NCBI GenBank assembly: GCA_051294905.1
Contig: CM119382.1
Span: 10,540,001 to 10,604,000 of the forward strand
DNA: 64,000 nt
Direction of reading: 5' to 3'
Source of the DNA: Botryllus schlosseri
Lineage: Eukaryota
Both the position numbers and the translations under genes were made by a program. The notes beneath the pieces are model-generated. The model had not been told where the DNA came from. It searched no databases and saw nothing but the letters and a program-made list of their open reading frames with translations. This document shows, one piece after another, positions 2,667 to 25,227 of this stretch. Every line of letters begins with the position of its first letter. Position 1 is the first letter of the stretch.

Positions 2667-3198
2667 AGTAGTTAGGTAAATGGGCGATTTGCCCGCATGC
2701 ACCCTATTTACTTAAACAAACCAAGATTATCATTATAATAAACAGTGTAAGAATTAGCTCATTCTCAGTTTTGCAGCAATACTCGAAGGGGAATTCCCTT
2801 CTGGCTGTGCGGCAATTAAAAAAGGGGGCTTGACTGAGAGAAAACGAACAAAGAATCTGGATTGACCTTTGTACTCAGACTGGAGTACTTCTACTTGTAC
2901 TTTTCCACTCCTGATTCTACCTCACCTCTGGACACGAGACTTGTATATTTGATATATATTATATTTTCCCGCGAATAACAATGGATTGACATTTAATTTC
3001 AATGGTGTGCACGCCGACGAATCGGTATAGTTCTCCTGTCTTGACGTGTCGTTCCGCGGTGGGTTGATTAATCCAATTGCGTGTAAACACGATGGGATTT
3101 GGAAATATTTGTCCGTCAAACATGACGTCAGTATAGTATTTGTTCCTCCGGATCCGTATGTGAGATCCCGGCTCGTGTTTTAGGTGGATTGTCAACGC
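2667..3198. repeat. Polinton left TIR (532 bp)
   Basis: Reverse complement of 24690-25221; four mismatches seen (2733, 2924, 3172, 3192). Confidence 0.95.
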
Positions 3199-3246
3199 GT
3201 TCGGCCAGACGAAACGATGCAAGGTAACGATTCTGGTCTGCGTCAT
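2959..3246 (-). CDS. Hypothetical 95-aa protein reading from unique sequence into the TIR
   Basis: ATG at 3246, co-oriented downstream of the protease gene; no recognised motif. Confidence 0.35.
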   Translation of the reverse strand: MTQTRIVTLHRFVWPNALTIHLKHEPGSHIRIRRNKYYTDVMFDGQIFPNPIVFTRNWINQPTAERHVKTGELYRFVGVHTIEIKCQSIVIRGKI

Positions 3247-3399
3247 ACTGTCGTAGTTGACCTCTTTTTGCTCCCTGGGTAGTAGCGAGTATGATATTTA
3301 TGATGCCAACGACTCCCCGAGCGCTCGTAAAAAGACTATAACGTATGCTGTACAAGGTTTATTGAACATACACAATCTGAAAATACAAGTCACGAGTGT

Positions 3400-3846
3400 T
3401 CACAAAGTAGATTTTTCTTTGTTTACAAAATCAAAAACGAGGCGATCATTCACACGTTTATCAGAACCAAAAGCATCTAAATAATCAAGGGTACCTACAC
3501 CTTGACCCTTTCTAATCAGGAAAGCGATACAATGTTCGCCGCACACAAACGAACGTAAAGACTGTAATTGCACACTAGTGAAGGTATAATCGTCCGCGCC
3601 CAATAACCTATAGATCTCCTTCTTCAGAGGCGGAATCCCGAAAGAGTCGTGAAAGTGCGTGCCATCTTGATCGGCGAAGATACAGATCCAATGCGAGCCG
3701 CCCTTCGCGTTAGGGTCGTAATTGATAACGACTGCGTACGGCTTAAGTAGCTTCGCTGGCAATAAATCGATAGCGAAAGTCCCGGCAAATAAATCTCGCG
3801 TGTCGCGATGATTGAATAAAATATGATTAATTTGATCGGTATTCAT
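3400..3846 (-). CDS. Adenain-like (C5) cysteine maturation protease
   Basis: GSHW (His), FHDSFG (Asp), QLQS...CGEHC (Gln/Cys); likely start MNTDQI at 3846 with ATGA overlap onto the MCP stop. Confidence 0.93.
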   Translation of the reverse strand: MNTDQINHILFNHRDTRDLFAGTFAIDLLPAKLLKPYAVVINYDPNAKGGSHWICIFADQDGTHFHDSFGIPPLKKEIYRLLGADDYTFTSVQLQSLRSFVCGEHCIAFLIRKGQGVGTLDYLDAFGSDKRVNDRLVFDFVNKEKSTL

Positions 3847-5117
3847 ACGGACACTACTTCCCGCTTCTCTGAGATCTCCAAAAGTTGTTGGTATTCTTTG
3901 GGACACAGTAGAGTCGCTCCTTCCGGCAACCCCGCGGTCAGGGTCATGTGAAGCTTCACGGACCCGGTCTTCTCGAGTTGAAAGCAGCCTTGATGCGTAC
4001 GGTCTGGAGTCAAATCGAACGCAAACAGAGTGTATCCCGCCTTATAATTCTCAGAGTCGATAAAAAGATCTTCCTGAGCATCCCACTTCCCGGTGGATTG
4101 GTAGACGCTGAAAAACCCCTCGAGGTTTGTGTTTTTATCAAAATCGAATCTGAAATTACGCCCGTACAAAAGCTTCCCGTTCACGTTGATAGCCAGATTT
4201 CCGACGTGATAGTGACAGAAATTAAAGGGGTTTCGAGTCTTACTACCGTTATAGGCAGCTGTCGGGACCAGACCAATCACGATACGTCGAGGCATGACCC
4301 CAGAAATCAGCGTTTTCTCAATGGAGGTATCACCCGCTCCAAAAGAGTGATTACTCATTTCGAGCTTTATAATAGGGTATTTCGCCGTGTGCGTACGAAG
4401 CATCGTTTTGTGTGCCAAACTGACAGAGTCTGAAACTTGGATTTGCTTGACGTGCAATTCCACTTTTTTCAGTATGATTTTAGAGTCGGCAGACCCGAGG
4501 AGACAGAAATCGTCATCGTTACGGATTAATCGCAACGACAGATCCACGTTATCCAGTAAATATCTGTCCTGGTCGAATAAACCGAGCGGTATCTTGCCGA
4601 TGACCTCGAGCGTTGCACTGTCGGCGGTCAGGGCTTTTCGTGCCGTGAAGCCGACGTTGTCTGCCGTGAAAGTATCCTGCTGTTTCATCGTATCTGGGAT
4701 CCAGCCGATACATTTCAGATAGGTTTCGCCGGCCGCGCGAGAGCTATTTAGTAGATGGAAAATGAAGCTTTTGTAGGCGTGATTGTTGTCCGATGTGGTG
4801 ATCAGCTTCGAGCCCAGATACAGATCGATCTGCTTGAATAAGGCGTCGAATATATCCGACACGACAGCGACGTTGTCTCCCCCGATCGTGGTGCAATCTT
4901 TTTTGGTCACTTGCAGTTGTATTTTCATAAACGAGCTGGACAAATCCAAGTAGTGATCGCTACCTTTCACGTTAATCTCAATGACATCGCCCAATTTATC
5001 CGGTGTGGCGATCAACGTGCTGGTGTCGGCGACCGCCGTTTGCGTCGGGGGTACCGTGAAAATATCTAATCCGCTGTTGAGGCACTCGGCCGAATTTTCG
5101 TGCATCAATTTAGCCAT
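3843..5117 (-). CDS. Double jelly-roll major capsid protein (hexon-like)
   Basis: MAKLMHENSAEC..GLDIFTVPPTQT start, YLDLSSS, NPFNF and YTLFAFDLTPD motifs typical of Polinton MCP; about 424 aa. Confidence 0.92.
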   Translation of the reverse strand: MAKLMHENSAECLNSGLDIFTVPPTQTAVADTSTLIATPDKLGDVIEINVKGSDHYLDLSSSFMKIQLQVTKKDCTTIGGDNVAVVSDIFDALFKQIDLYLGSKLITTSDNNHAYKSFIFHLLNSSRAAGETYLKCIGWIPDTMKQQDTFTADNVGFTARKALTADSATLEVIGKIPLGLFDQDRYLLDNVDLSLRLIRNDDDFCLLGSADSKIILKKVELHVKQIQVSDSVSLAHKTMLRTHTAKYPIIKLEMSNHSFGAGDTSIEKTLISGVMPRRIVIGLVPTAAYNGSKTRNPFNFCHYHVGNLAINVNGKLLYGRNFRFDFDKNTNLEGFFSVYQSTGKWDAQEDLFIDSENYKAGYTLFAFDLTPDRTHQGCFQLEKTGSVKLHMTLTAGLPEGATLLCPKEYQQLLEISEKREVVSV

Positions 5118-5508
5118 CGAATATATCTCTCCGTCTACGTTTCTTGTTTGACGTAGTACCTCCCCGCGCACCCTTTTTAAGCTTTTTCGTGGCTTTTCGT
5201 TTACGACCCCCGATCGCGGTATCGAGAAGCTGTAGACCTCCTTCTTTACTCCGTGATATAGCGGATTGCTTGAACGAGCGCCCGGCCACCAAATCTTTTG
5301 CGATATTCGACCCGGTACGGAGGATTTGTTTCCCCAGTATCTTGGAGCCTTTTGATACTAGAGGTAAGACCGCCCGGCCTATGGTTCGAAAAATCGACGC
5401 GAGTCCGCTACCGCTTTGCCTGGACCCCCGGTAAAACCCGTAATTCCCAGCTCCGGTCTGATAGTGGTGCAATACGGCTTCTCGGTCACAGCAATAGTGC
5501 ACTTTCAT
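5110..5508 (-). CDS. Basic core protein with putative protease sites
   Basis: YQTGAG and RQSGSGLASIFRTIGRAVLPL (glycine motif followed by an amphipathic helix); K/R-rich tail. Confidence 0.75.
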   Translation of the reverse strand: MKVHYCCDREAVLHHYQTGAGNYGFYRGSRQSGSGLASIFRTIGRAVLPLVSKGSKILGKQILRTGSNIAKDLVAGRSFKQSAISRSKEGGLQLLDTAIGGRKRKATKKLKKGARGGTTSNKKRRRRDIFDG

Positions 5509-5870
5509 AACGACACCCTGAGATGTATCGTGAGGTCCAAACCCGAGATGTCCAATAATTCACCATACTCGTCCCTTATATAGATGTAGAAATACTCGAA
5601 ACGGTCGAGTCTGACTTTGGCGTAGTATCGATTTTGAAATATATGGTTTTGTCGCTCCCCCTCGTGTAGCGCAACGACTCTTAGCAACGGGACCAAAGCG
5701 TCACCCACCGGCGTCGACTCGATGTCATTACAGTAGATAAAGGCGTAGAGGCTTTCGCCCGACTCACGAACAAAGTTTATCTCCATAAGAGCAATCTCAA
5801 GACCTTTACAATCCATTCCGTGGGGTAGGGTAAATACGGGCCCGTCACCGGTCAGTGTTTGGAACGTCAT
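5505..5870 (-). CDS. Minor capsid (penton) paralog 3, minimal 121 aa
   Basis: EIALMEINF, FIYCNDIESTPVGDALVPLLRVV and IYIRDEYG match penton strands. Confidence 0.75.
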   Translation of the reverse strand: MTFQTLTGDGPVFTLPHGMDCKGLEIALMEINFVRESGESLYAFIYCNDIESTPVGDALVPLLRVVALHEGERQNHIFQNRYYAKVRLDRFEYFYIYIRDEYGELLDISGLDLTIHLRVSL

Positions 5871-6624
5871 CTCGTAAGTGAAGGGTCAATTCAATGTCAC
5901 CGCATTTAAGTTCTTTTCCAAGAGAATCTCTTATGCTGATGCGTACGCTACGGAAGCTGTTGGCATCGGCGGGTAGGTAAAACGGTTTCCTGAATGATAC
6001 GTGCTGTCGTTTCATCTCCGGTACCGTAACGGGGATGATTCGTAAAAGTCTGGACATATAATCACCTACCGGGAGATGGCGCACGCAATCGCAATATATA
6101 AATAAATACTGAGATTTTACTATCGACGGGATATACCACGCATCGAATTCAATGTGCTCAACCTCGCGTAATGAGATCGGGACCTCTCCCTCCTCCGCGA
6201 TGATGTCGTCAATATCGTATCTCTGATGCTCGTGTATGAGACGGTAGTTACCGAAATTCGCGTAAGGCCCGAGCGTAGATGTGAACAGAGAAGAATTCGG
6301 TGGGAATCCCTCGCATACCAATCGATTCTGGCTGGGCGTAAAGTACCAGTGATAACCGTTCACGAGTTCCTCGCTAATTCTTTGCATTAGTTGATCGACA
6401 TTATCGAAATCTCCGGTGGGTAACTCATAGACTTCGGTGACGTCTTTGACAATCGTATTCCAGAAGCTCATGGCCCGGGTGGGTTCTGTGATCACAATTC
6501 TTTCTTGAAAGTCATGATTGAAGCTAATCTCTCGGAGAGCGATCTGTTTACCCTCCGATTCGATTTCAACCGGTAATTCAACCGTGAAATCGGGTCCGCT
6601 TCCGAATATCGTGATATAGCTCAT
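5845..6624 (-). CDS. Minor capsid (penton) paralog 2
   Basis: IALREISF, FIYCDCVRHLPVGDYMSRLLRIIP, PFYLP and ISIRDSLG. Confidence 0.82.
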   Translation of the reverse strand: MSYITIFGSGPDFTVELPVEIESEGKQIALREISFNHDFQERIVITEPTRAMSFWNTIVKDVTEVYELPTGDFDNVDQLMQRISEELVNGYHWYFTPSQNRLVCEGFPPNSSLFTSTLGPYANFGNYRLIHEHQRYDIDDIIAEEGEVPISLREVEHIEFDAWYIPSIVKSQYLFIYCDCVRHLPVGDYMSRLLRIIPVTVPEMKRQHVSFRKPFYLPADANSFRSVRISIRDSLGKELKCGDIELTLHLRDDVPNTDR

Positions 6625-7424
6625 AACGCTTTGACGGCTCCTCGACGGATCAGTAAAGTCACTGTAACGGGAGCTGTTTTAAACGCGACAGGGTTATTGT
6701 TCTTGTCACGAAGATATACTCGTATATTTCGAATATTACTCTTGGCCAGGGGAAAAAAGTAAGGTTTATCATATACACAGTGCTGTATTTTTCCTTCTTG
6801 CGCGGTCACCGGAACGCTTCGAAGGAGAGGTACTAGCTCGCTCCCGAATACACGAGGTCTGATCAGATCGGTGTATATATAAACGGTGTCTACATCTTTC
6901 ACGATGGTTTTCGGTCTGATTAAGAACTCTATTGGTTTTTGTTTCTTCAAAACATGATGTTCCACTGTAAAATAACGCGGAAACGTGTCCTCGATGCTGG
7001 TGAGACGCGGACCCGCACCACTGATTTTTTTGACCCGTATCAAGGGCTCGTCGGCCGGTGGAAACCGACTCTTGAGATACTCAAAGTTCAAGCCGAACAC
7101 GCCACCGGTATATCGCTTGATTGTAATTTCTTTCTCGTATCGCAAGCGAAACTGTTCCAACATATCTGGGACACTGCGATACTTGCCGGGCGGTATGTAA
7201 TACACGTGACGATGGCCCCTGTCAGAAAATTCGATACCCGCACGCTTGTGGTCTACCGTGAACGTGGGCTGGAAGCTCACTGGGAACATGACCTCCGCAA
7301 GCGATGCCTCATATCTTTCTGTATCATATTTTAACTCGGAGAATAGTTGGGTTACAAAATCGTTCGCGGTGTTAGCCTTAAAAACGCTCATTGAAGAATT
7401 ACTCGGTAAAACCAGAAGAGTCAT
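6621..7424 (-). CDS. Minor capsid (penton) paralog 1
   Basis: Canonical LPSNSS..F..NT..DF start; YIYTDLI..RVFG...VPLLRSVP, PYFFPL and IRVYLRD. Confidence 0.9.
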   Translation of the reverse strand: MTLLVLPSNSSMSVFKANTANDFVTQLFSELKYDTERYEASLAEVMFPVSFQPTFTVDHKRAGIEFSDRGHRHVYYIPPGKYRSVPDMLEQFRLRYEKEITIKRYTGGVFGLNFEYLKSRFPPADEPLIRVKKISGAGPRLTSIEDTFPRYFTVEHHVLKKQKPIEFLIRPKTIVKDVDTVYIYTDLIRPRVFGSELVPLLRSVPVTAQEGKIQHCVYDKPYFFPLAKSNIRNIRVYLRDKNNNPVAFKTAPVTVTLLIRRGAVKAL

Positions 7425-7596
7425 CTTCGTCGGCGGTTTGGAGAGACAGTACCCTAGTTAGCGAGGATATATCCGTCTGGGTTTCGGTGAATAAGTTGTA
7501 CACAGTTACACCCACGATAAAAAACAGTATCGCGAGCTGTAGAACCACCAAAGGTATCCGTAACGTACCCCGCTGCGATAAATCCATGATTACCAC
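7399..7596 (-). CDS. Small single-pass membrane protein (65 aa)
   Basis: Hydrophobic IPLVVLQLAILFFIVGVTVYNLF; fits the gap between integrase and penton. Confidence 0.5.
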   Translation of the reverse strand: MVIMDLSQRGTLRIPLVVLQLAILFFIVGVTVYNLFTETQTDISSLTRVLSLQTADEDDSSGFTE

Positions 7597-7617
7597 GGTC
7601 GAGTTGTCGTGTCTGTT

Positions 7618-8619
7618 TTATACAAAACCGTCAACGTAAGAGTCCATCGATTTTGGATAACCCTCCCAGCGCACTAGATATCTCCGCTTGCGCCCCCTCC
7701 CGATCACTTTCTGTATCGATTCGACGCGATAGACATCGTCTTTTTTATCGATGGCTTGTAATTCGCTTTCGTAGAATGTTCCACTAATTACGTCCCCGTT
7801 ATAATCTCGGATGGTGTACGTAGCGGGGCTTCCCCATTTCCGTGTGTGCACGTAAAATATCTCGCGAGTCCAAGACCCCGCTGTCCCTTTTGCAAACGTG
7901 GCACGTCGGGTGGTAATTCTCACTGGTTGATCGACGGGTAGCTTGGGTGACACCGGAGGTCCGGTTCCGTTGTATAGTCTATCGAACACCAGAGACGCGT
8001 TGCTATTGGTAACCTCTGACGGTCGCATCAAAATCGCGGTGTGATACGTTTGGTTATAGCTCTCTGCGATATCTCCCAGCACGTCGATGTAGCGATGTGT
8101 GCGGTTCTTGACAAAGTATCGATTCAATACATTGCGGGTCGTACGAATTACACGCTCTACGACGCTAGCCTTAGTATCGCTGTTGGTAAAAAAGTGCTTG
8201 ACGTGGTTGTCTCTAAAAAACCTCTGTATAACCGACCCCGTGAATTCTTTCCCGGCATCAGTCTGAACGACGTGTGGTCTCTTATGAGCGAATACCTGGT
8301 TGAAGCCCTCGATCATATCTATCGGACGCTTTCGTTTCGTGGCGTATAAAAACATATATTTCGAAAAACAACAAATTGACACCAACACATAACGATAGCC
8401 ATCATTGCTACTAGAAATATTAGACAAGTCCATGAGGTCACTCTGGATCTGAATAAATGGCCCGCCGACGATCGTCTTCTGTCGTTGAAATTTGCCGGTA
8501 TACGGATAGAACAGGGTGTAGCTATCCTCTTGTTTCAAATCCTTCTTGTCGGGGTGCAAGTATTTACCGCGATAGCTCGCCGGGGCTTTGATATCAAAAT
8601 ATTTATCCTTACTCGTCAT
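7618..8619 (-). CDS. Retroviral-like DDE integrase with C-terminal chromodomain
   Basis: QSDLMD, QTDAGKEF and SVVERVIRT; chromodomain YRVESI..RYLVRWEGY. Confidence 0.95.
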   Translation of the reverse strand: MTSKDKYFDIKAPASYRGKYLHPDKKDLKQEDSYTLFYPYTGKFQRQKTIVGGPFIQIQSDLMDLSNISSSNDGYRYVLVSICCFSKYMFLYATKRKRPIDMIEGFNQVFAHKRPHVVQTDAGKEFTGSVIQRFFRDNHVKHFFTNSDTKASVVERVIRTTRNVLNRYFVKNRTHRYIDVLGDIAESYNQTYHTAILMRPSEVTNSNASLVFDRLYNGTGPPVSPKLPVDQPVRITTRRATFAKGTAGSWTREIFYVHTRKWGSPATYTIRDYNGDVISGTFYESELQAIDKKDDVYRVESIQKVIGRGRKRRYLVRWEGYPKSMDSYVDGFV

Positions 8620-9061
8620 CGTCGTAGGCCGTCCACGATCCGTAGAGCTGGGGCGGCTTCCTGTTAGCTCGACGGCTACGTTTGATGATCTCTTGCAGTG
8701 GCGGTGATCTTTTGGCTATCTTGCTTGTGGTGGGGGTACTTGGAGACGACGGGGCTTTCGGTGTTACTTTCGAGGTGACCCGACCCGGCTTCACCTCGTG
8801 CAGTAATTCACGGAGAGTGGCTATCTGATCGTTCGTGAACCCGTTGGAGGTGTCGGTCATCTTCATCTGAAGAGGCTTGTCGATCTGACCCCGTTGACTT
8901 TTATACTTTGAGATGGCAGAGTTATACATGGACAATTTCTTGTCGGCCGAAACGTCCATAGTCAAAATCGCGCTGATCGATCGGTCCAACTCGGAGTTCA
9001 AATCAGTCGCGTTAGAGGGAGCCAGAGGGTTAGGCGATATGATCACTTTTTTGAAATTCAT
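8609..9061 (-). CDS. Polinton hypothetical 150-aa protein
   Basis: Tightly packed with overlapping stop/start codons; LDRSISAIL..KLSMYNSAI helix; basic S/P-rich tail. Confidence 0.65.
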   Translation of the reverse strand: MNFKKVIISPNPLAPSNATDLNSELDRSISAILTMDVSADKKLSMYNSAISKYKSQRGQIDKPLQMKMTDTSNGFTNDQIATLRELLHEVKPGRVTSKVTPKAPSSPSTPTTSKIAKRSPPLQEIIKRSRRANRKPPQLYGSWTAYDDDE

Positions 9062-9432
9062 TTTTTGCCAAAAACAGATTTCAGCAACGATGCCGCCAAT
9101 GGCAGGATTGATAAGATACCGCTAATAAAACCGCCTCGTTGTGTGTTGGCGTGTAATACACGTCTCTTGGTCTTCAAGCTCAACTTTTTACTTGTCAGCT
9201 TTCGAATTTTGTCTTTATGCGGGTGTAAATTTTGTATATGGCGTTTTGACAGTCGCAGATTGCCGTTCAAAACATTCACACAGACTTCACAAAATGCCTT
9301 CACCAAACCGGAAGAGCTACCCAATAATATATCCTTCCTTACCGCGGGCGACGCCTTGGACAGAAATTTCAAAGTCTCGCCGTGCTTCTTAATATAACAG
9401 TGACGTTTCGGCAGCGATTTGGTCCGAGCCAT
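9058..9432 (-). CDS. Basic core protein with a QRGG-F site and C-terminal amphipathic helix
   Basis: FCEVCVNVLNGN core and QRGGFISGILSILPLAASLL, typical of a conserved Polinton small protein. Confidence 0.8.
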   Translation of the reverse strand: MARTKSLPKRHCYIKKHGETLKFLSKASPAVRKDILLGSSSGLVKAFCEVCVNVLNGNLRLSKRHIQNLHPHKDKIRKLTSKKLSLKTKRRVLHANTQRGGFISGILSILPLAASLLKSVFGKK

Positions 9433-9470
9433 TATGAATATAGTGTCAAAAGTGTCGGTACTTTCGCTAT

Positions 9471-10112
9471 TTATAGTGGCGTGTACAACACGAGTTCATC
9501 CCCAGGAAACACCCCTGTTTTAACACGACTAGAATCGGGTGTGGCTTGCGTCAAATCTATAAAAATGTACCCGTGAGCGTTCTTTGTCGCATCGGCATAC
9601 GCGTCAACTAGAAACTTGGCGTTACCGGGGTACATTTGCTTGCCAAGAACTCGAATCTGAGATCGATCTCTAGGATTACGCATGATAATCAAATACTGGG
9701 TGCTGAGACTGAGGTCCCTCGATCTTTTGGACTGGAAATATAGATTTTGGACCGCGAATATTGTGGTCACCGAGCCGTGATTCGCGTAGACTGTAAAAAA
9801 GGGGGTCACCCTGTCCGAAAATTCCATTTTATCATCAATAATTAATAGAGTAGGACACGGGCGGCTTGTCGCCAACTCATCCAAAATGGAGAGATCCGAG
9901 TAAAACTCAACGCCTTGTAGCTCGTTAAAGGAGTCTTGATAAGCCGTATAGCAATAGATAATTCTTTTAATTCGCCCCTTTGAAAGCTGATCGATATTTT
10001 TTATGACTTTAAATATAAAAGTACTCTTCCCCGAAAACGACGGTCCTGCTAAAAGACACGCCCTCCCTGTCGAGAAATCCATCACCAAGGCTGTTTTGAC
10101 GCGACGAGACAT
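9471..10112 (-). CDS. FtsK/A32-like genome packaging ATPase
   Basis: Walker A GPSFSGKST, Walker B LLIIDD, and AVQNLY. Confidence 0.93.
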   Translation of the reverse strand: MSRRVKTALVMDFSTGRACLLAGPSFSGKSTFIFKVIKNIDQLSKGRIKRIIYCYTAYQDSFNELQGVEFYSDLSILDELATSRPCPTLLIIDDKMEFSDRVTPFFTVYANHGSVTTIFAVQNLYFQSKRSRDLSLSTQYLIIMRNPRDRSQIRVLGKQMYPGNAKFLVDAYADATKNAHGYIFIDLTQATPDSSRVKTGVFPGDELVLYTPL

Positions 10113-10235
10113 GTATTCACAAACACACTTCTATATATATATAACAAGGATAGGTACACGAAAAAATATGGCGATTCAGAGCGTCACGCAAACCGTCCAC
10201 ACAGCGAATCTTACAATGTCCACGACCCCGTCTTT

Positions 10236-11796
10236 TTACACCAGAAGCGAGGTGTCATAATCGACGCGAGAAGACGTGGCATCATCAGGGCTCAGCGGTG
10301 TCATGGCCAAGACTCGAGGTCTACGAGGGGGAGGGTAAGGTGATACCCGCCCGGGTGACTTTTTTGTTACGATTTTAGTCAGATTCGGTCTTGGTAGCAC
10401 TGGCGACTGATGTATGTCTCTGGCACGCTGCGGTGTCGCCACGACAAACGGGGCAGTCAGATTCGGTCTTGGTATCACTGGCGACTGATGATGTATGTCT
10501 CTGGCACGCTGTGGTGTCGCCACGACAAACGGGGCGTCAACCACGGTGGGTGATGTGTCAACGGATTTAGGGGCGCGACGATCTTCTCTATGACCCGATC
10601 GGAGATAACCCTGGTTCATGAAGCGGTATCGGGTGTTGTCGTTTCTTTCGTGAGTCAAGCGCTGATCACGGCTCTGTACGCTGCAGGAGGCACGATCGGT
10701 TGGGTCTGTGAAGCCAACTTGACGACGATTCAAGATACGGGCATCAGTCAGCAGTCGGCTCGTCACATCATCGCCTTCATATGTGAACACAGGTAGAAAC
10801 TGCAGCTCCGTCACACACCGCAACAGGTCGTCTCGAAAGCTCATCCATTCTAGAACACAAAGGATAGTTACACATGTGTCGGGTAATGACTATTACTGCT
10901 TGGTTACCTGGTCTCAAGGTGGTGGCAGTGTGTAGACACTCCTGCAACTCTTTCTTGAAGTGAATCGTTTGCTGATCGGTCAGATTGTCTTCCAGCAGAA
11001 TATCTTTCAGCACAGAGACACGATGCCAGTTGGCTTGGGTGTCGCGGTGAAGTCTATTGAGTGAAAGCTGGCCACAAACATGACTAATGAAATCGCTAGC
11101 TGAGTTATGAGTCATCTGGAAAAACAAAAATAACACACGTATTACAAACTGAAACGCCGCCTTCGAAAACTAGTCACAAGCGACAGGCGTTGATGATAGA
11201 AAAAGCGTTCAATGTGGAATAAAATTTCACAGTGAGCACCAAAAGATATACAATGTATGCCAACAAAATAGTGTCTTCGTTTTAACATGTCTTTGACGTG
11301 CCGCCGAAACACTATAAAATAAAATAATAGTAAGACTCCATACTTGTGTCACAATATACAACCCCACCTGTTTTTAGGAATTCCATGTGACTCGACAGGT
11401 CTTGTAGCTGAGACGGGCGAGGAGGACGCCAGCAGATTCTTGTGTCTATGAATAAACGTGCCTTAGCAACGACAGAGAGCTAATAGCATATTTACACACC
11501 CCCAATCTCCTCCAAGATGTTTCTGAGTCTTCTGACGTCCATGTTCAAAGCCTCTATCTTCAAGACCTCAGCCAAAAGTTCCACCCGGTCTGCCCCGTAT
11601 TCGTGTCGTATGATCAGGCCAAACAGAACCCCAATCTCAAACTTGTCTTTCTGCTCGCATGGAGGTAAATGATCGTACCCAGACATGTACTCCCGCAGCG
11701 GGAAGAATTCTGCATGATCAATGTATTGATCCATCTGAGAATTGCGACAATTATGATTTCAATTTATGATGAATCATAACAGTTTCAACTCACCAT
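10236..11796 (-). CDS. Predicted spliced accessory gene, about 423 aa, unknown function
   Basis: Coding segments 11796-11794, 11734-11500, 11445-11368, 11311-11178, 11115-10908 and 10849-10236 join in frame through GT-AG introns of 59, 54, 56, 62 and 58 nt. Confidence 0.6.
10377..10535. repeat. Two tandem 78/81-bp coding repeats
   Basis: Encode APFVVATPQRARDIH(H)QSPV(I/L)PRPNLT twice. Confidence 0.9.
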
Positions 11797-12057
11797 GATT
11801 CCTTCTATACGCTGATAAAATCTGAAAAGAAAAACTCATTGTATTATACAATCATGAAACACAATACGCTTTTCCCCACCTGCTGTAAGCTATTGGCCTG
11901 TGGAGTTAATGCTATCGTCTGTAAACAACGCGAGAAAACGAGCACTATTGTGAAAGGTTCAAGATGCATAGAATAATTCGAATCAACATGAGAGCATAAT
12001 GCGAAAACAGGTTTAAAAAAAAAGCACAGAATACGGAAAGTGCACATTTGGAAAAAA

Positions 12058-13012
12058 TCATAGTTCCAAGGGTCTCGTATGAATACCGTCTGATTCGACT
12101 ATTCGTTTACAGTAGAAGTGAGACAGGGCCGATCGAAATTGCTCATAGGTAAAAATGGAGGCATTTTTCCGTACAAAACCCGAATTAATATCCCCATGAG
12201 GTTTTTTCTCAAACAACACTTTCCGGTAGATGTCAGCAGTCAGTTTGTTTACCTTTGAGAGCCCTTTACACGAGTACTTATCCTCATTGCAATAATAAGT
12301 CTTTGCGGACAGACCAACGAAAATATTCGATTGTGCCTCAATTTTGAAAAGACCACTGGTCCGTTGATCATATCGATTACGAGCTTTACAACAGGCACGT
12401 TTATCATTGAACGATAGAGGATTGGCCAAAAATTCGCTACGGTGCTCATCACAGGCGATTGCTGGAAAATATTTGTGAAAATTTTCAAAAAATTCTGCTT
12501 GTTTTTCGGGTTGTACAACTTTTAGCAGGCTGTCAGAGGAGATAGCGCCGTACCAGGAATCAGTGTCCGAGTATAATAGTTCAATGGACCGTGGCAGGAG
12601 GTAGGTGGACATATACGAATGGAACCGTAATAAGGCCAATTTCGCATAACCATACACAAAGTACCCAATGTGGTTAGGTTGGTTCCAAACATGTTTTCTC
12701 AATTTCATGGTCACCTCAAAAATATCTGGTGACAACTCAATCATTGATTTAAATCTGGAGTCATTTACCAAGACCATAGCTTTTTGACGGTTAACAATCT
12801 TGACATCAGAATATTTTGTACAATTCGAGATAGTTTTACCTATACAGGAATTTCCAATGTCCTTATAGAACTGCCCTAGTGGCTTCTGGGACGGGTCATC
12901 GTCAGCCCGTCTTCTAGCCTCGGTTATCGTATCTACAAGAGAATTGAAACATTCAATGGGTTCAAACTCGATAGCTTGAAATATCTTAGTAACGATTAAC
13001 CCATTCTCGAGG
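12058..13012 (-). other. Duplicate 3' part of pPolB, cut by the assembly gap
   Basis: Matches 18012-18966. Confidence 0.9.
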
Positions 13013-13112
13013 NNNNNNNNNNNNNNNNNNNNNNNNNNNNNNNNNNNNNNNNNNNNNNNNNNNNNNNNNNNNNNNNNNNNNNNNNNNNNNNNNNNNNNNN
13101 NNNNNNNNNNNN
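13013..13112. other. Assembly gap (100 N)
   Basis: Run of exactly 100 N. Confidence 1.
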
Positions 13113-15015: not shown

Positions 15016-15386
15016 TTTTTGCCAAAAACAGATTTCAGCAACGATGCCGCCAATGGCAGGATTGATAAGATACCGCTAATAAAACCGCCTCGTTGTGTGT
15101 TGGCGTGTAATACACGTCTCTTGGTCTTCAAGCTCAACTTTTTACTTGTCAGCTTTCGAATTTTGTCTTTATGCGGGTGTAAATTTTGTATATGGCGTTT
15201 TGACAGTCGCAGATTGCCGTTCAAAACATTCACACAGACTTCACAAAATGCCTTCACCAAACCGGAAGAGCTACCCAATAATATATCCTTCCTTACCGCG
15301 GGCGACGCCTTGGACAGAAATTTCAAAGTCTCGCCGTGCTTCTTAATATAACAGTGACGTTTCGGCAGCGATTTGGTCCGAGCCAT
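15012..15386 (-). CDS. QRGG-F core protein (second copy)
   Basis: Identical to 9058-9432. Confidence 0.75.
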   Translation of the reverse strand: MARTKSLPKRHCYIKKHGETLKFLSKASPAVRKDILLGSSSGLVKAFCEVCVNVLNGNLRLSKRHIQNLHPHKDKIRKLTSKKLSLKTKRRVLHANTQRGGFISGILSILPLAASLLKSVFGKK

Positions 15387-15424
15387 TATGAATATAGTGT
15401 CAAAAGTGTCGGTACTTTCGCTAT

Positions 15425-16066
15425 TTATAGTGGCGTGTACAACACGAGTTCATCCCCAGGAAACACCCCTGTTTTAACACGACTAGAATCGGGTGTGGCT
15501 TGCGTCAAATCTATAAAAATGTACCCGTGAGCGTTCTTTGTCGCATCGGCATACGCGTCAACTAGAAACTTGGCGTTACCGGGGTACATTTGCTTGCCAA
15601 GAACTCGAATCTGAGATCGATCTCTAGGATTACGCATGATAATCAAATACTGGGTGCTGAGACTGAGGTCCCTCGATCTTTTGGACTGGAAATATAGATT
15701 TTGGACCGCGAATATTGTGGTCACCGAGCCGTGATTCGCGTAGACTGTAAAAAAGGGGGTCACCCTGTCCGAAAATTCCATTTTATCATCAATAATTAAT
15801 AGAGTAGGACACGGGCGGCTTGTCGCCAACTCATCCAAAATGGAGAGATCCGAGTAAAACTCAACGCCTTGTAGCTCGTTAAAGGAGTCTTGATAAGCCG
15901 TATAGCAATAGATAATTCTTTTAATTCGCCCCTTTGAAAGCTGATCGATATTTTTTATGACTTTAAATATAAAAGTACTCTTCCCCGAAAACGACGGTCC
16001 TGCTAAAAGACACGCCCTCCCTGTCGAGAAATCCATCACCAAGGCTGTTTTGACGCGACGAGACAT
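15425..16066 (-). CDS. Packaging ATPase (second copy)
   Basis: Identical to 9471-10112. Confidence 0.9.
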   Translation of the reverse strand: MSRRVKTALVMDFSTGRACLLAGPSFSGKSTFIFKVIKNIDQLSKGRIKRIIYCYTAYQDSFNELQGVEFYSDLSILDELATSRPCPTLLIIDDKMEFSDRVTPFFTVYANHGSVTTIFAVQNLYFQSKRSRDLSLSTQYLIIMRNPRDRSQIRVLGKQMYPGNAKFLVDAYADATKNAHGYIFIDLTQATPDSSRVKTGVFPGDELVLYTPL

Positions 16067-16189
16067 GTATTCACAAACACACTTCTATATATATATAACA
16101 AGGATAGGTACACGAAAAAATATGGCGATTCAGAGCGTCACGCAAACCGTCCACACAGCGAATCTTACAATGTCCACGACCCCGTCTTT

Positions 16190-17750
16190 TTACACCAGAA
16201 GCGAGGTGTCATAATCGACGCGAGAAGACGTGGCATCATCAGGGCTCAGCGGTGTCATGGCCAAGACTCGAGGTCTACGAGGGGGAGGGTAAGGTGATAC
16301 CCGCCCGGGTGACTTTTTTGTTACGATTTTAGTCAGATTCGGTCTTGGTAGCACTGGCGACTGATGTATGTCTCTGGCACGCTGCGGTGTCGCCACGACA
16401 AACGGGGCAGTCAGATTCGGTCTTGGTATCACTGGCGACTGATGATGTATGTCTCTGGCACGCTGTGGTGTCGCCACGACAAACGGGGCGTCAACCACGG
16501 TGGGTGATGTGTCAACGGATTTAGGGGCGCGACGATCTTCTCTATGACCCGATCGGAGATAACCCTGGTTCATGAAGCGGTATCGGGTGTTGTCGTTTCT
16601 TTCGTGAGTCAAGCGCTGATCACGGCTCTGTACGCTGCAGGAGGCACGATCGGTTGGGTCTGTGAAGCCAACTTGACGACGATTCAAGATACGGGCATCA
16701 GTCAGCAGTCGGCTCGTCACATCATCGCCTTCATATGTGAACACAGGTAGAAACTGCAGCTCCGTCACACACCGCAACAGGTCGTCTCGAAAGCTCATCC
16801 ATTCTAGAACACAAAGGATAGTTACACATGTGTCGGGTAATGACTATTACTGCTTGGTTACCTGGTCTCAAGGTGGTGGCAGTGTGTAGACACTCCTGCA
16901 ACTCTTTCTTGAAGTGAATCGTTTGCTGATCGGTCAGATTGTCTTCCAGCAGAATATCTTTCAGCACAGAGACACGATGCCAGTTGGCTTGGGTGTCGCG
17001 GTGAAGTCTATTGAGTGAAAGCTGGCCACAAACATGACTAATGAAATCGCTAGCTGAGTTATGAGTCATCTGGAAAAACAAAAATAACACACGTATTACA
17101 AACTGAAACGCCGCCTTCGAAAACTAGTCACAAGCGACAGGCGTTGATGATAGAAAAAGCGTTCAATGTGGAATAAAATTTCACAGTGAGCACCAAAAGA
17201 TATACAATGTATGCCAACAAAATAGTGTCTTCGTTTTAACATGTCTTTGACGTGCCGCCGAAACACTATAAAATAAAATAATAGTAAGACTCCATACTTG
17301 TGTCACAATATACAACCCCACCTGTTTTTAGGAATTCCATGTGACTCGACAGGTCTTGTAGCTGAGACGGGCGAGGAGGACGCCAGCAGATTCTTGTGTC
17401 TATGAATAAACGTGCCTTAGCAACGACAGAGAGCTAATAGCATATTTACACACCCCCAATCTCCTCCAAGATGTTTCTGAGTCTTCTGACGTCCATGTTC
17501 AAAGCCTCTATCTTCAAGACCTCAGCCAAAAGTTCCACCCGGTCTGCCCCGTATTCGTGTCGTATGATCAGGCCAAACAGAACCCCAATCTCAAACTTGT
17601 CTTTCTGCTCGCATGGAGGTAAATGATCGTACCCAGACATGTACTCCCGCAGCGGGAAGAATTCTGCATGATCAATGTATTGATCCATCTGAGAATTGCG
17701 ACAATTATGATTTCAATTTATGATGAATCATAACAGTTTCAACTCACCAT
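16190..17750 (-). CDS. Spliced accessory gene (second copy)
   Basis: Identical to 10236-11796. Confidence 0.55.
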
Positions 17751-18011
17751 GATTCCTTCTATACGCTGATAAAATCTGAAAAGAAAAACTCATTGTATTA
17801 TACAATCATGAAACACAATACGCTTTTCCCCACCTGCTGTAAGCTATTGGCCTGTGGAGTTAATGCTATCGTCTGTAAACAACGCGAGAAAACGAGCACT
17901 ATTGTGAAAGGTTCAAGATGCATAGAATAATTCGAATCAACATGAGAGCATAATGCGAAAACAGGTTTAAAAAAAAAGCACAGAATACGGAAAGTGCACA
18001 TTTGGAAAAAA

Positions 18012-21000
18012 TCATAGTTCCAAGGGTCTCGTATGAATACCGTCTGATTCGACTATTCGTTTACAGTAGAAGTGAGACAGGGCCGATCGAAATTGCTCAT
18101 AGGTAAAAATGGAGGCATTTTTCCGTACAAAACCCGAATTAATATCCCCATGAGGTTTTTTCTCAAACAACACTTTCCGGTAGATGTCAGCAGTCAGTTT
18201 GTTTACCTTTGAGAGCCCTTTACACGAGTACTTATCCTCATTGCAATAATAAGTCTTTGCGGACAGACCAACGAAAATATTCGATTGTGCCTCAATTTTG
18301 AAAAGACCACTGGTCCGTTGATCATATCGATTACGAGCTTTACAACAGGCACGTTTATCATTGAACGATAGAGGATTGGCCAAAAATTCGCTACGGTGCT
18401 CATCACAGGCGATTGCTGGAAAATATTTGTGAAAATTTTCAAAAAATTCTGCTTGTTTTTCGGGTTGTACAACTTTTAGCAGGCTGTCAGAGGAGATAGC
18501 GCCGTACCAGGAATCAGTGTCCGAGTATAATAGTTCAATGGACCGTGGCAGGAGGTAGGTGGACATATACGAATGGAACCGTAATAAGGCCAATTTCGCA
18601 TAACCATACACAAAGTACCCAATGTGGTTAGGTTGGTTCCAAACATGTTTTCTCAATTTCATGGTCACCTCAAAAATATCTGGTGACAACTCAATCATTG
18701 ATTTAAATCTGGAGTCATTTACCAAGACCATAGCTTTTTGACGGTTAACAATCTTGACATCAGAATATTTTGTACAATTCGAGATAGTTTTACCTATACA
18801 GGAATTTCCAATGTCCTTATAGAACTGCCCTAGTGGCTTCTGGGACGGGTCATCGTCAGCCCGTCTTCTAGCCTCGGTTATCGTATCTACAAGAGAATTG
18901 AAACATTCAATGGGTTCAAACTCGATAGCTTGAAATATCTTAGTAACGATTAACCCATTCTCGAGGTACCACTTCAATAGTGGTGTTATTAACAATGTTT
19001 TTGTGGCCTGCAGAGTAGCAATCAAGAATTTCCGTGGCCGTTTCAAAAAACCATGTTGTTCAGCAAATGCTTTCATGTACGGGCCTATATCATCACGACT
19101 TACGTAAGCATGTTTGAACAGGGGACAGAACTCACTAAAATGCTCCTTGAGGTGACTAGGCACATGAATATCGACCTCAACGGCCCCAAAAAATTGATCT
19201 TTTGACACCAACTCTAAGAGTTTCGAACTTGAAAGGACCCGACATTTCACCATTTTACTGGATTCGAGCGTTTGAATAAAGGCAGCTATATCACTTCGTT
19301 GGCGCATAATGACCCATTGACATTCTGTGATGTACTCCAATTTATACCCCACTTTTTGAATATACTGGATTTTACGCTGCGTCGCGGCCCAGCGGGCTTG
19401 GCGATCCGGGCTGGCTCCCAACTCGCAGCCGTGACCATGGTGAAAACATCCAAACAGCTCAAGTGCAACAGGCCCTTGTGGAGTCCTATAATACCCATCA
19501 ATACAAATCTGGAGCAGGCCGATACGATGCTCAGGACCATTGAATTGATGTTGGATTTTGACCCCCCGACAGTGCGCAATGTAGCTTAGCCATTGGTGAG
19601 CCATTTTTCCATAGAGCGGGGCCGTTTTTGTCCTGGAGAATAGAGTAAAATCTTCATTAGGTGACCACAGACAAGGATAGCCCCCCGGTAATCGTGAACG
19701 GAGAGTATCCAAATAAAGACAATTCGAATCCAGACCTAGCACCTGTTCTACAGGTAGAGCGCTATCGCCATAGATTTGGGGTTTGATTTTTGTGACTTTA
19801 GCCTCTGCATATCGCAATGAAACAACAGAAAGCCCGCCACGTAGATTTTCACGTATCAAGGTGTGTATATGGCTATACTTTTGATTCAACAAGGTGAATA
19901 CAGGTGGTATGCTATTAAACACCAACCTTGAGGCCAGAGAGGGCAAAGATATACCATGTTTAGCCATGTCAATTGAGTAACGAGCAAAGAGTTGCTTGTG
20001 CTTTGTGAGGGCCTCCAGTAACGGCCCGACATCTAAACTGACATAGAAAGATAGATAGTCACGAAAAGTAGTCATTTTATGTTCCGCCCACTTTGATTGA
20101 CACCAAAGATATTGCTCATCTGTTATATTAGACCGTTTCAGCTTGTTATAAAAATGTATGTGGTCTGGGAGGGATTTTTCATCCAATACTGATAAATCAG
20201 TGAAATAGTTATATGGAAAAAAAGCCTTCGTTGAAGCACAGTTATGACAACGTATGTATGCGTCATAACTTGTGCCGGCGCCAAGATACAAGGTCACATC
20301 CAAAAATCGGAACCTACTAGTCGACAAAGACATATATGACGTACCCCTCTTAACAATACTGATAGGGTCTGATAAGTACTCCACCAGATACGGGATAATC
20401 AGAGGTATATCATAACGAGACCCATTGAAAGAGAATACAGGTAATTGACTCAAATAATTCAAAAAACGCTGTTTCAATAAGGTCGCTGGGCTCATACGTT
20501 TGACATCCGGTTCAGTGGTATGCATTTCTTCAGCAATACAATCTAATCGTTCCAACACATCATGAAATTGTTGACATAATGCCTCAAAACACTCACTTTG
20601 GATCAATTCAAAACGTGACATCATCCTAGCAACCAGCGCTCCAGGGTCGCCATCACTAATTAGTACTTCTGGGGTCTCGTACCCCGGGAAATTACATGCG
20701 AAGGCCACCGCGGCCGGTATATGACAGTCCACATAGTGCACATTAGTAGTATCGTTTGGAGTCGAGCCTTTTTGTAATATACTTTCATAGTCAAAAACCA
20801 AGTTATATGGATAGAAACGAGATGGTTTGGGCACGATTATCCCCAATTCGTCCAACGCTTCAAATATAGTAGGCTCAGGCTTGAACATACCTCCCCGATA
20901 GTGATTAGGAATGTCTTTAAAACAATTATGACGATCGAGATAATATTTTGAGCTGAACAGGCGATGACAAGTCTCACAGCTATAATTCTTGCAATATGAG

Positions 21001-21997: not shown

Positions 21998-22483
21998 TTA
22001 CGTATTTGTATAAAATTTCATGGTAGCTCTGGCAGCTGACATCTCTTTGAGAAAGGCAACTTTTGCACGCATGATGCGTTCCAAGGGTAATTGCATACGC
22101 AAATCCTGTCCATTCGACTGAGAGAGTATTTGCGAAATTTCTTGTTCTATCCGGTTATAATCTTGAGTGAATGTTTCATGAGAAGGAAAACTAGATCTCG
22201 AAAGTATATCATCCACTTCCCCCAGAATAGTGAACATCGCTTCCGATGGGGCGATTGAGATAGCCTCAACAATGGTCGCCTTGAGGTGCTCCATCATTCG
22301 TCTACTATATTTCCCAAACCTCTCACCCCCAGGTCTACGTCTGGATGGGAATGCAGGAGGTTGGGCTGGATTTTCTACATTTTCTGGAATATCATTTGCA
22401 GGGCTAATCGCATCGAGCAGGTCTACCGGATAACCACCTTCCATCAATTCTGGTATCCCGTTATCAGCCATAGTCATGAGCAA
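21998..22483 (-). CDS. Hypothetical 161-aa protein, possibly the 5' exon of pPolB
   Basis: Open ORF whose stop lies inside a GTAACT donor-like site. Confidence 0.6.
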   Translation of the reverse strand: MLMTMADNGIPELMEGGYPVDLLDAISPANDIPENVENPAQPPAFPSRRRPGGERFGKYSRRMMEHLKATIVEAISIAPSEAMFTILGEVDDILSRSSFPSHETFTQDYNRIEQEISQILSQSNGQDLRMQLPLERIMRAKVAFLKEMSAARATMKFYTNT

Positions 22484-22499
22484 AGATTTGTGATTATAA

Positions 22500-22850: not shown

Positions 22851-22875
22851 ACATACTTACAGGCATAATTACATC

Positions 22876-23583
22876 ATGGCATGTAAATACAACCCGTACG
22901 AAAATATTGCCAGGAAGCGCAAGCTAGATACTGACTTGAAACAGGCTGCCCCGTCTCATATCCCAAATTTTGACAATGCTACCAGTCTCTATGGCACGCA
23001 AGTCAGCTTCGATGGACGTGTACAACTGGCGTCGACCAGACGACATGGACCCAAGATGACTTATATGAAAGTCTTGATCACAGATGGTAAAAAATCTCTA
23101 CCAGGAGTGATATTCAATGACAAATTACTGGACTGCATCGAAACTGCATACAGACAAGGTCATACTATGACATTCTGTAACATCAAGATCACTGCTGACG
23201 CAAGAACTGATGCCCCGTCATTAATCATTGGTCGCAATTCTACTGCTACGAAGAGCAAAGCACGCTTACCCTGTCCAGAGATGGTTGAATTCCAGTACGT
23301 GTCCGCAGAAGATATCCAAAAAGGCTTGTATGATGACAAGATTGTTAATTACAGAGGTCTCTGTATTGCCACGGATTCTGAATCCATTGGCACAAACTCG
23401 GAGAGACAGCTACATTCATATGCACTAGTGAATGGTGACATTTCTGTTGATCTGAAAAATTGGGGTATTATACCGTTATTCACTGCTGACAAATATTATG
23501 ATGTCACCCATCTACGTGTACAAGTCCGATCAGGCAAACGTGAGCTGTTCTTACAAGACTATTCGCGTATTTGCAAAGAATGA
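22876..23583 (+). CDS. Putative tandem OB-fold ssDNA-binding (RPA-like) protein
   Basis: 235 aa; RKRK NLS-like motif; OB-like strands VLITDGKKSLPGVIF, VDLKNWG and YDVTHLRVQVRSGKRELFL. Confidence 0.6.
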   Translation: MACKYNPYENIARKRKLDTDLKQAAPSHIPNFDNATSLYGTQVSFDGRVQLASTRRHGPKMTYMKVLITDGKKSLPGVIFNDKLLDCIETAYRQGHTMTFCNIKITADARTDAPSLIIGRNSTATKSKARLPCPEMVEFQYVSAEDIQKGLYDDKIVNYRGLCIATDSESIGTNSERQLHSYALVNGDISVDLKNWGIIPLFTADKYYDVTHLRVQVRSGKRELFLQDYSRICKE

Positions 23584-24689
23584 ACTGTTTCATGTATGAA
23601 ATAAAGAAACATGTGATTATTTTGTTGACACTATTTATCAGAGATTAGGGTTGGTTATAGTTAACTTTCTAACCTGCCAGAATACATCATCCTTCAATAT
23701 CATACTCCTAGCTATCGTCTCGACTCAGCAATCTCACACGAGCGGTATGGAAAAGAGGTTATCAGATTGTAAAACCGCATGTTTGTGAGAGCACTATACG
23801 CAGTGATAATTAAAACAGAGCGAGACAGTACCGCAGTACATTAACAGAGGGAAAATCGGCGTGATACTTAATCAATACTCAACTCTCGCTTCCAGTATAG
23901 TGACCAAGCGACGACCGAGACCAATGTCCAACGTTTTCGAACAAAGAGAATAATTCCTCGACCCAGCGGGGTGTATTACAGGACAAAGGCGCTGTGTACG
24001 AGGCGACATGGCTGTTTTCGAAAGCGAGATTATCGATCCTCGGCATAGCAGGATGGATCACAAAACAAAAGGCGCTATGCAGTCTACGCGCCCGCATGTC
24101 ATTTTCGAAAGCGATATTGATCATCGTAAATTAGGTCTTGGACAAAGCAACGATAGCAGCGCGTCGTATAATACCCGAGCTAGGTAGTTATAGTATACTA
24201 TAAACCTGATCCTCGCACCGCCAACGAGCCGTAACCACAATTCTAATACCGCGACAATCCATACACAATTATACACCATACCGAGAGCTTTCAAGGTATC
24301 CGTCGACGGGCTTCGAGCGATTGTCGACACGTGATCCGTGCTCTGTGACCCGTAACAATAGCGGGCTTTATTTACATGGGTATTTTTTCATATTCTCGAG
24401 AACTCGAGTTGGCACGTATATTTATAACTATAACAGATCATCTCCCCTACCACAATCTCGGTCTATAAGCAGAGTACGATTCGCGTATGACACAGGCCGT
24501 GGGCGTCGCTTTGCACAACCGAGCGTATGGACACCTAAAACACGCACCAGGATATCTCTATCAGGAGAAAACTCTACGACAGACAACCACTACCAATCCC
24601 CATCATGCTATATATTATTATGCTACAGATAGATACATATTATTTTATTGTAAATAAAGGAAAATCCACTTTATCAATTCATCCGCCCG

Positions 24690-25221
24690 GCGTTGGCAAT
24701 CCACCTAAAACACGAACCGGGATCTCACATACGGATCCGGAGGAACAAATACTATACTGACGTCATGTTTGACGGACAAATATTTCCAAATCCCATCGTG
24801 TTTACACGCAATTGGATTAATCAACCCACCGCGGAACGACACGTCAAGACAGGAGAACTATACCGATTCGTCGGCGTGCACACCATTGAAATTAAATGTC
24901 AATCCATTGTTATTCGCGGGAAAATATAATATATATCAAATATACAAGTCTCGTGTCCAGAGGCGAGGTAGAATCAGGAGTGGAAAAGTACAAGTAGAAG
25001 TACTCCAGTCTGAGTACAAAGGTCAATCCAGATTCTTTGTTCGTTTTCTCTCAGTCAAGCCCCCTTTTTTAATTGCCGCACAGCCAGAAGGGAATTCCCC
25101 TTCGAGTATTGCTGCAAAACTGAGAATGAGCTAATTCTTACACTGTTTATTATATTGATAATCTTGGTTTGTTTAAGTAAATAGGGTGCATGCGGGCAAA
25201 TCGCCCATTTACCTAACTACT
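24690..25221. repeat. Polinton right TIR (532 bp)
   Basis: Reverse complement of 2667-3198. Confidence 0.95.
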
Positions 25222-25227
25222 AAGATG

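Follow-up and report, generated by a model that had tools for sequence, protein, structure and literature searches.

Intact Polintons (Mavericks) are well known, with 134 in vertebrates alone. The published definition, from which we take our criteria, requires (AGT)2 or (AG)3 ends and a 6-bp target-site duplication (TSD) (PMC8097293). Particle formation and germline re-infection by animal Polintons are a long-standing question, for which the published evidence, as far as the accounts available here go, comprises selection and one co-purification from insect cell lines. Here, we describe an adintovirus-like Polinton in Botryllus schlosseri, located within a stretch of 64,000 nucleotides (GenBank assembly GCA_051294905.1, contig CM119382.1, positions 10,540,001 to 10,604,000, forward strand). 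We refer to this whole stretch as the window, and all positions are those of the window unless a locus is named. The element is probably a very young Polinton of the adintovirus type with all of its genes open. Its family likely still spreads by means of its own capsid, and likely packages palindromic satellites that lack a capsid gene. We consider this the best explanation for its termini, TSD, gene set, and predicted folds, for the approximately 22 loci in the genome, and for the observed selection, spliced transcripts, and capsid-less elements.

The initial annotation, made from the sequence alone, had described a complete element with terminal inverted repeats (TIRs) of about 99% identity, a perfect TSD, and a length of about 16.6 kb once an internal duplication is collapsed. 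Our measurements agree. The TIRs differ at 4 of 532 bp (99.2% identity) and have AGTAGT at both ends, and AAGATG is found on both sides, as the Polinton definition (PMC8097293) has it. Subtracting 5,954 from the 22,555 bp assembled gives 16,601 bp; a gap-free sister copy measures 16,602 bp at 99.3-99.5% identity. Completeness is borne out by the TSD, the continuous long terminal repeat (LTR) element that hosts the insertion, and the sister copies, although neither side of the assembly gap inside the element holds the whole of it. Thus delimited, the element has the features of a Polinton/Maverick (TIRs and TSD, PolB, integrase, capsid, penton, and ATPase) and fits the description of adintoviruses (PMC8502044 and PMC11071296, with PMC11071308 for the terminal protein and vOTU domain).

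The host LTR element (1641-28606) would be about 4.4 kb without the Polinton. It is flanked by CTAC on both sides, has a gag-like open reading frame (ORF) and no long pol ORF, and has about 14 close copies. Its gag-like ORF, which starts at 2243, is broken by the Polinton, while sister copies have gag-like ORFs. An empty site with one AAGATG was seen in one of the three sister copies checked, where an 8-base motif search matched. The two LTRs show 0 differences in 338 bases, which bounds their divergence at about 0.9%, and the Polinton insertion is therefore young. TIR identity was rejected as an insertion clock, because the left and right TIRs of a sister inserted elsewhere are also 99.248% identical. 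The pre-insertion site (2661-2666 and 25222-25233) reads AAGATGCATCTT, a perfect 12-base palindrome that is probably due to chance, since the TSDs of other copies differ.

The replication, virion, packaging, and integration genes are uninterrupted (Table 1), in keeping with the initial annotation: the ORFs encode a polymerase (1291 residues), integrase (333), ATPase (213), capsid (424), three pentons (267, 259, and 121), and a protease (148). The same gene order is found in a second family in the genome (family 2), at about 38-79% protein identity. Copies of family 2 (C12:15855701, C7:27264222, and C1:29037286; L059-L064) have a capsid gene at 72% DNA identity, AGTAGT ends of their own, and two 159-residue genes. 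A Pfam scan of 20 ORFs returned only rve, Chromo, and weak P-loop matches. PDB sequence searches yielded no match for the capsid, polymerase core, penton, or OB protein and only a weak one for the protease; fold prediction was therefore needed for identification. The AlphaFold model of the capsid protein, a check that the initial annotation had proposed, has a predicted local distance difference test (pLDDT) score of 90 and a double jelly-roll fold, matching iridovirus, PBCV-1, Sputnik, and mavirus capsids in Foldseek (E 3e-15). The closest capsid relatives are 49% identical and the next 38% or less, and PF21738 is matched by 7 of the 91 sequences aligned with it. The model of the 267-residue penton (pLDDT 87) is most similar to the mavirus penton (E 7e-7), followed by adenovirus penton bases and Sputnik. 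It is assigned as a single jelly-roll penton by fold, and the 259- and 121-residue paralogues by sequence similarity. Both the double jelly-roll capsid and the penton folds are thus confirmed in the predicted models.

The integrase has an rve match above the curated cut-off and the DDE positions, plus a Chromo match at residues 298-328 that falls under the cut-off (E 0.031). The ATPase has Walker A and B and downstream motifs, and its Pfam matches are to generic P-loops, weak and under the cut-off; the family 2 match begins at residue 11. Judging by its motifs, we take it to be of the A32/FtsK type, and the 148-residue ORF is presumably an adenain/Ulp1-like protease on the same footing. The His-Asp-Gln-Cys order of the latter is unchanged in four sequences. 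Its best PDB sequence match is the African swine fever virus S273R protease (weak, E 0.15), and the homologue search returned one match, with none in the phage collection. The basic 132-residue protein is likely a virion core or cement protein and the basic 124-residue protein likely a virion core protein, to judge by composition and by eye.

On the replication side, the polymerase has no direct Pfam match but 27 relatives. Exo I-III, Pol A-C, and KxY motifs align in 14 of them, PF03175 is found in 4 of these 14, and a Vsr-like insert matches at profile positions 795-868 (E 3e-4). An OTU-like region was read from motifs, with no profile match; its Cys motif (196-202) is kept in 12 of the 14 relatives, and its His motif is at 286-292. 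The weak PF03175 signal and the Vsr insert suggest placement among Beta-like adintoviruses. The 235-residue protein is a predicted OB-fold protein and a candidate single-stranded DNA-binding protein, and its family 2 orthologue matches PF01336 weakly (E 0.013). Such a protein would suit strand-displacement replication. Between the divergent 159-residue and OB genes lie two 173-bp direct repeats (22503-22675 and 22684-22857; 86% identical), a candidate bidirectional promoter or enhancer. A donor-like GTAACTG site (21889-22001) overlaps the stop of the 159-residue ORF in 16 of 16 family 1 loci, family 1 being that of the present element, and was not found in family 2; splicing there could fuse the ORF in frame to polB. 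No tRNA genes were found.

Across the genome, the capsid gene matches over its full length at 20 places with at least 93% identity, one of them in the window, and there are also one partial and one split locus. We find that both ends are present in 14 of the 19 other copies. Perfect 6-bp TSDs at different sites flank 13 of these 14, and 12 measure 16.37-16.60 kb. All 13 unspliced genes are open in 10 of the 19 copies; in the other 9, at least one of these genes carries a frameshift or stop or lacks a part. One sister, the twin of the present element, shows a single difference over about 15,170 compared bases, with its own flank at another site, and ends at a gap; pooled reads could inflate this identity. 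A TSD seemingly shared by the two closest sisters was rejected as BLAST over-extension, each having its own flanks.

Selection was estimated from single-base codon variants common to two or more of the 20 copies, by simple site counting with no tree; the copies are not independent. The ratio of non-synonymous to synonymous change (omega) is below 0.28 in all 15 genes. The capsid has 54 synonymous and 4 non-synonymous shared variants (omega 0.021, P = 2e-30), the ATPase 29 and 3 (0.030), the protease 19 and 4 (0.058), the integrase 55 and 13 (0.066), and polB 249 and 88 (0.098). Pentons range from 0.07 to 0.19 (paralogue 3, 0.071; paralogue 2, 0.19), and other values are 0.028 for both the 132- and 124-residue proteins, 0.14 for the 150-residue protein, 0.089 for the 159-residue protein, and 0.059 for gene A. 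Singleton variants are less constrained (omega 0.05-0.64), as is expected of mutation after insertion. Amino acid states private to the window and its twin number only two across the 15 genes. Thus, the comparison among copies that the initial annotation had called for shows strong purifying selection, and the virion genes were under such selection during the recent expansion. Barreat and Katzourakis use the same selection argument for cyprinid Mavericks (PMC8097293).

The element also carries two spliced accessory genes, A and B. Three short ORFs (80, 112, and 202 residues) were rejected as stand-alone genes, being exons of these two. Frameshift flags on the 202- and 112-residue ORFs mostly vanish when exons are compared, with net exon indels in multiples of three in all but one aligned locus. 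There are four GT-AG introns of 54-59 nt, of which three lie within coding sequence and preserve the frame; the fourth, of 59 nt, sits right before the start codon of gene A. The splice sites are kept in those family 1 loci that span them and also wherever family 2 aligns. The first-exon ORFs of A and B show no similarity to each other, and no LXCXE oncoid motif was found in the five small ORFs scanned. Gene B contains two in-frame tandem repeats of 78-81 bp (10377-10539). On the minus strand, polB, gene A, and gene B each have a pyrimidine tract with an AG acceptor that ends 0-1 base short of the start codon (21888-21910, 11735-11755, and 11116-11136, respectively). The family 2 polB has an acceptor 2 bases before its start, and late genes have no comparable tract. 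These acceptors suggest a spliced 5' leader, added in cis or in trans.

The RNA comparison covered 10.7 kb (2300-13012); the right part, with the 5' part of polB and the OB gene, lies outside it. A single-cell run (X24), of which about 3 in 100 was read, gave 242 reads, most of them on 9818-12323; two CT..AC joints of gene A are crossed by 21 and 4 spliced reads, and poly-T loose ends mark the gene B poly(A) site (10094). Reads within the TIR are ambiguous, since satellites have the same TIR. Contigs of a bulk-RNA run (X5) occur in 30 of 30 bins and include three of the spliced joints, in genes A and B. One X5 contig of 2,467 bases spans capsid, core, and penton genes at depth 77. In a host-gene control, spliced exons have a depth of 69-103 in X5, intron contigs have 12 or less, and two intron bins are at zero. 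This contrast between host exons and introns shows X5 to be RNA, and late-gene transcription in this sample is suggested.

Capsid-less elements with the same ends are abundant. A 22-base TIR word has 220 exact matches in the genome, and its reversed control has none. Pairing the first 100 of the 220 matches listed gave 38 pairs and 13 unpaired sites. Among these, 6 of the 38 pairs enclose a capsid gene (15.0-16.6 kb) and 32 do not. The 32 capsid-less spans run from 8.2 to 31.4 kb (median 14.5 kb; 22 at 13.4-15.7 kb), and by hand count 23 fall within 75-105% of 16.6 kb, with 5 below and 4 above. We read 15 of these satellites: the five top capsid-less TIR hits, and 10 chosen by hand among the 32, of which 7 lie near the mode and 3 outside. 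The five top hits are palindromes with arms of 5.9-7.3 kb at 99.5-99.9% identity; an inverted arm of 4 kb or more is found in 9 of the 10 hand-picked pairs, and one has only 1.7 kb. None of 16 ORFs matched in the 10 hand-picked pairs, and the 15 contain no viral ORF sequence beyond 31 protease codons in a single element. Every one of the 15 aligns to the TIR at about 2717-2866, and up to 12 align to 24500-24550. TSDs are perfect in 5 of the 10 hand-picked pairs and in 3 of the 4 top hits with both ends found. The capsid-less elements sampled thus have the cis termini of the capsid-bearing copies (the probable helpers) and are mobile, by their TSDs. No matching description of palindromic or foldback non-autonomous Polintons was found in the literature listings, with subscription papers and supplements outside scope.

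The first 50 bases of helpers and palindromes (L011-L084) are a mosaic of blocks of about 6-10 bases in many combinations, and some left and right ends differ. Half-arms of different palindromes have a median of 49% of their length in common, at 84% identity; common descent by itself therefore does not account for their similar size. In adenovirus, genomes shorter than 75% or longer than 105% of the wild type undergo rearrangement, and vectors of half size are packaged in dimeric form, both direct and inverted (PMC4189039). Satellite lengths fit such a packaging rule, a suggestive analogy that has no null model. One palindrome (L015 164-940, L016 6778-7745) splits an ORF in which Ulp1-like and ubiquitin-hydrolase-like motifs can be read by eye and which is probably that of a different mobile element.

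In the life cycle that we consider likely, the polymerase would use its N-terminal terminal-protein domain as the primer at the AGTAGT ends and copy by strand displacement, with the OB-fold protein coating the displaced strand. An early phase would express the spliced accessory genes and polB, and a late phase the ATPase, integrase, pentons, core proteins, capsid, and protease. The ATPase would fill a capsid sized for about 16.5 kb, and the integrase would re-insert the element, leaving 6-bp duplications. Helpers would also copy and package gene-less palindromic satellites with the same ends. The initial annotation had called the element virion-competent and perhaps active or inducible. The gene set, young copies, and family transcripts accord with this, and we infer virion competence and activity rather than observe them. 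It had also named inactivating mutations, a lack of expression in any tissue, and an absence of other young copies as findings that would speak against it. None of these emerged at the level open to the present analysis: in the assembly, the ORFs are open here and all 13 in 10 of the 19 other copies; there are about 20 copies, one at a single difference; and the family is transcribed, with transcripts that are not assignable to this insertion.

Several observations weigh against this life cycle. No particle, capsid protein, or free linear genome has been observed, and no pile-up of read ends was listed in four runs, two of them raw RNA reads (contigs cannot show ends). In X24, there are 0 reads on 3732-8385 (capsid, pentons, and most of the integrase) and about two at the 3' end of the protease gene; since a host mRNA is covered along its length in X24, the missing late reads are not simply 3' bias. 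Furthermore, 191 of the 242 X24 reads match at 95-99% identity and 19 at 99% or more. Most thus come from other copies or alleles and report on the family rather than this insertion. The X5 contigs reveal neither strand nor expression level, and DNA carried over from the roughly 20 copies could raise their depth. What purifying selection documents is that the lineage was functional in the past; it does not speak to activity now. Motifs or weak scores are the basis for assigning the protease, ATPase, and OB-fold protein. Finally, this copy spans an assembly gap and its near-identical twin likewise ends at one, so that the sequence is possibly pooled from several copies.

It is unlikely, in our judgment, that the family spread lately by virions and is now latent or silenced in the germline, with only the spliced early genes transcribed and the late bulk-RNA contigs representing read-through or DNA carry-over. 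The lack of capsid and penton reads in X24 would suit such latency, as would the relaxed singleton variants and the damage in 9 of the 19 other copies, but a twin at one difference in about 15 kb at another site speaks against it, as do the late X5 contigs, whose depth resembles that of a spliced host gene in a sample where two bins of host intron have no cover at all.

We give still less credence to an intranuclear self-synthesizing transposon that keeps its capsid for a rare or other role (horizontal jumps or co-option), with satellite size set by descent or by polymerase or integrase limits. This would sit well with the missing particle evidence, and 9 of the 32 capsid-less pairs among the matches listed lie outside 75-105%, including a clean 11,960-bp palindrome with a TSD, in a length comparison that has no null model. 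However, among copies that differ by only 3-5%, constraint on the capsid, ATPase, and core genes equals or exceeds that on polB and integrase, and satellite lengths cluster although half-arms have a median of 49% of their sequence in common.

The internal duplication is very likely an artefact, an unmerged assembly overlap: its two copies (7159-13012 and 13113-18966) are identical at 5,854 of 5,854 bases and both adjoin a 100-N gap. That it is real, making this a rearranged 22.5-kb element with a truncated second polymerase and too long for packaging, is highly improbable even with the gap itself unsequenced, given that both copies end exactly at the gap, that no sister copy has the duplication, and that no joint leads back from 13012 in X3 or X5 contigs (possibly from other individuals).

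A more ambitious picture, which we put forward only tentatively, is that of a live, germline-integrating animal DNA virus with a spliced early/late programme like that of adenoviruses and its own single-stranded DNA-binding protein. Its gene-less inverted-dimer satellites, about five times as numerous as helpers, would be held at 80-95% of helper length by packaging and would swap 10-base terminal blocks. If so, the size of the satellites would be a trace, left in the genome, of Polinton virions assembling in the germline of an animal. Another intact Polinton alone is ordinary; what sets this one apart is that youth, selection on virion genes, transcription of early and possibly late genes, and palindromes sized like packaged genomes coincide. 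One host joins young full-length copies, constrained capsid genes, late-gene RNA contigs, an early-only sample, and palindromes sized to a packaging rule. Particle formation and satellite packaging are thus testable in ordinary tissue.

Elsewhere in the window, a multi-exon expressed host gene lies on the plus strand at 31462-38400 and onward, and two arginine/serine-rich frames (46219-46629 and 50050-51072) could be part of it or of a neighbour. Small inverted-repeat elements lie at 29215-29791, 42239-44654, and 47256-47626; they resemble miniature inverted-repeat transposable elements, except for one of 2.4 kb that has a transposase-like fragment (43461-43898), by eye.

Table 1. Features of the element and its host LTR element, in window positions.
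Feature	Position	Strand	Basis or remark
Left LTR of host element	1641..1978	+	338/338 bases same as 28269-28606; TG..CA ends
Left TSD, AAGATG	2661..2666	+	Single AAGATG at empty site of sister LTR element
Polinton/adintovirus-like element	2667..25221	genes mostly -	TIRs, TSD, and gene set
Left TIR, starts AGTAGT	2667..3198	+	532 bp; terminal repeat comparison
Putative maturation cysteine protease (adenain/Ulp1-like), 148 residues	3400..3846	-	His52, Asp67, Gln95, Cys102 in expected order
Double jelly-roll capsid protein, 424 residues	3843..5117	-	Predicted fold and Foldseek
Basic 132-residue protein	5110..5508	-	23% K+R; 75-77% identical in family 2
Penton paralogue 3, 121 residues, nearly no insert	5505..5870	-	BLASTP E 2e-13 to paralogue 2
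Penton paralogue 2, 259 residues	5845..6624	-	BLASTP E 7e-11 to paralogue 1
Penton paralogue 1, 267 residues, single jelly roll with insert	6621..7424	-	Predicted fold
Duplication copy 1	7159..13012		Exact 5,854 bp; single unit in sister copies
Retrovirus-like integrase, 333 residues, putative C-terminal chromodomain	7618..8619	-	Pfam rve E 5e-8; D61/D121/E155
Conserved 150-residue protein	8609..9061	-	50-54% identical in family 2
Basic 124-residue protein with C-terminal amphipathic stretch	9058..9432	-	68-69% identical in family 2
Packaging ATPase, 213 residues, probable start 10082	9471..10112	-	Walker A at 23, Walker B at 89
Spliced accessory gene B, 273 codons	10236..11115	-	Coding exons 11115-10908, 10849-10236; poly(A) at 10094
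Spliced accessory gene A, 160 codons	11142..11734	-	Coding exons 11734-11500, 11445-11368, 11311-11142
Scaffold gap, 100 N	13013..13112		Sequence
Duplication copy 2	13113..18966		Exact 5,854 bp
Protein-primed family B polymerase, 1291 residues	18012..21887	-	N-terminal region, vOTU Cys/His, C2H2 finger, Exo I-III, Vsr-like insert, Pol A-C
Conserved 159-residue protein	21998..22477	-	Two copies in family 2
Predicted OB-fold protein, 235 residues	22876..23583	+	Atlas feature score 0.95 to RPA-type OB clusters
Right TIR	24690..25221	-	532 bp; AGTAGT end
Right TSD, AAGATG	25222..25227	+	Matches left TSD
Right LTR of host element	28269..28606	+	Identical to left LTR

In its Vsr-like nuclease insert, the polymerase recalls those of the pPolB2 Polintons described from molluscs and a marine nematode (10.1101/2023.08.22.554363), which are likewise divergent. 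The ascidian Clavelina lepadiformis provides its best-matching named relative (37%). The satellites recall, by analogy only, helper-dependent adenovirus vectors, for which just the ends and a packaging signal are needed (PMC4189039). Those vectors are engineered, non-integrating, and derived from a different virus class. No matching description of introns, splicing, or OB-fold proteins in Polintons was found in the literature listings, with the same scope as above.

Adintoviruses, as described in PMC8502044 and PMC11071296, share with this element an animal host, an OTU-bearing protein-primed PolB, an rve integrase, an FtsK-type ATPase, a hexon and penton, TIRs, and integration; their integrase chromodomain and adenain-like protease have putative counterparts here. 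In contrast, this element has three penton paralogues, while PMC11071296 notes duplicate pentons in a few genomes. Its spliced accessory genes and predicted OB-fold protein are further differences, as is the lack of LXCXE in the five small ORFs scanned. Intact vertebrate Mavericks (PMC8097293) also have (AGT)2 ends and a 6-bp TSD; their core ORFs are intact, their morphogenesis genes are under strong purifying selection, their genome size is constrained, and their virions are likewise unobserved. Their published criterion is eight intronless ORFs, whereas two accessory genes here have four conserved short introns. Compared with that account, this locus adds selection among young copies within one genome, RNA evidence, and palindromic satellites.

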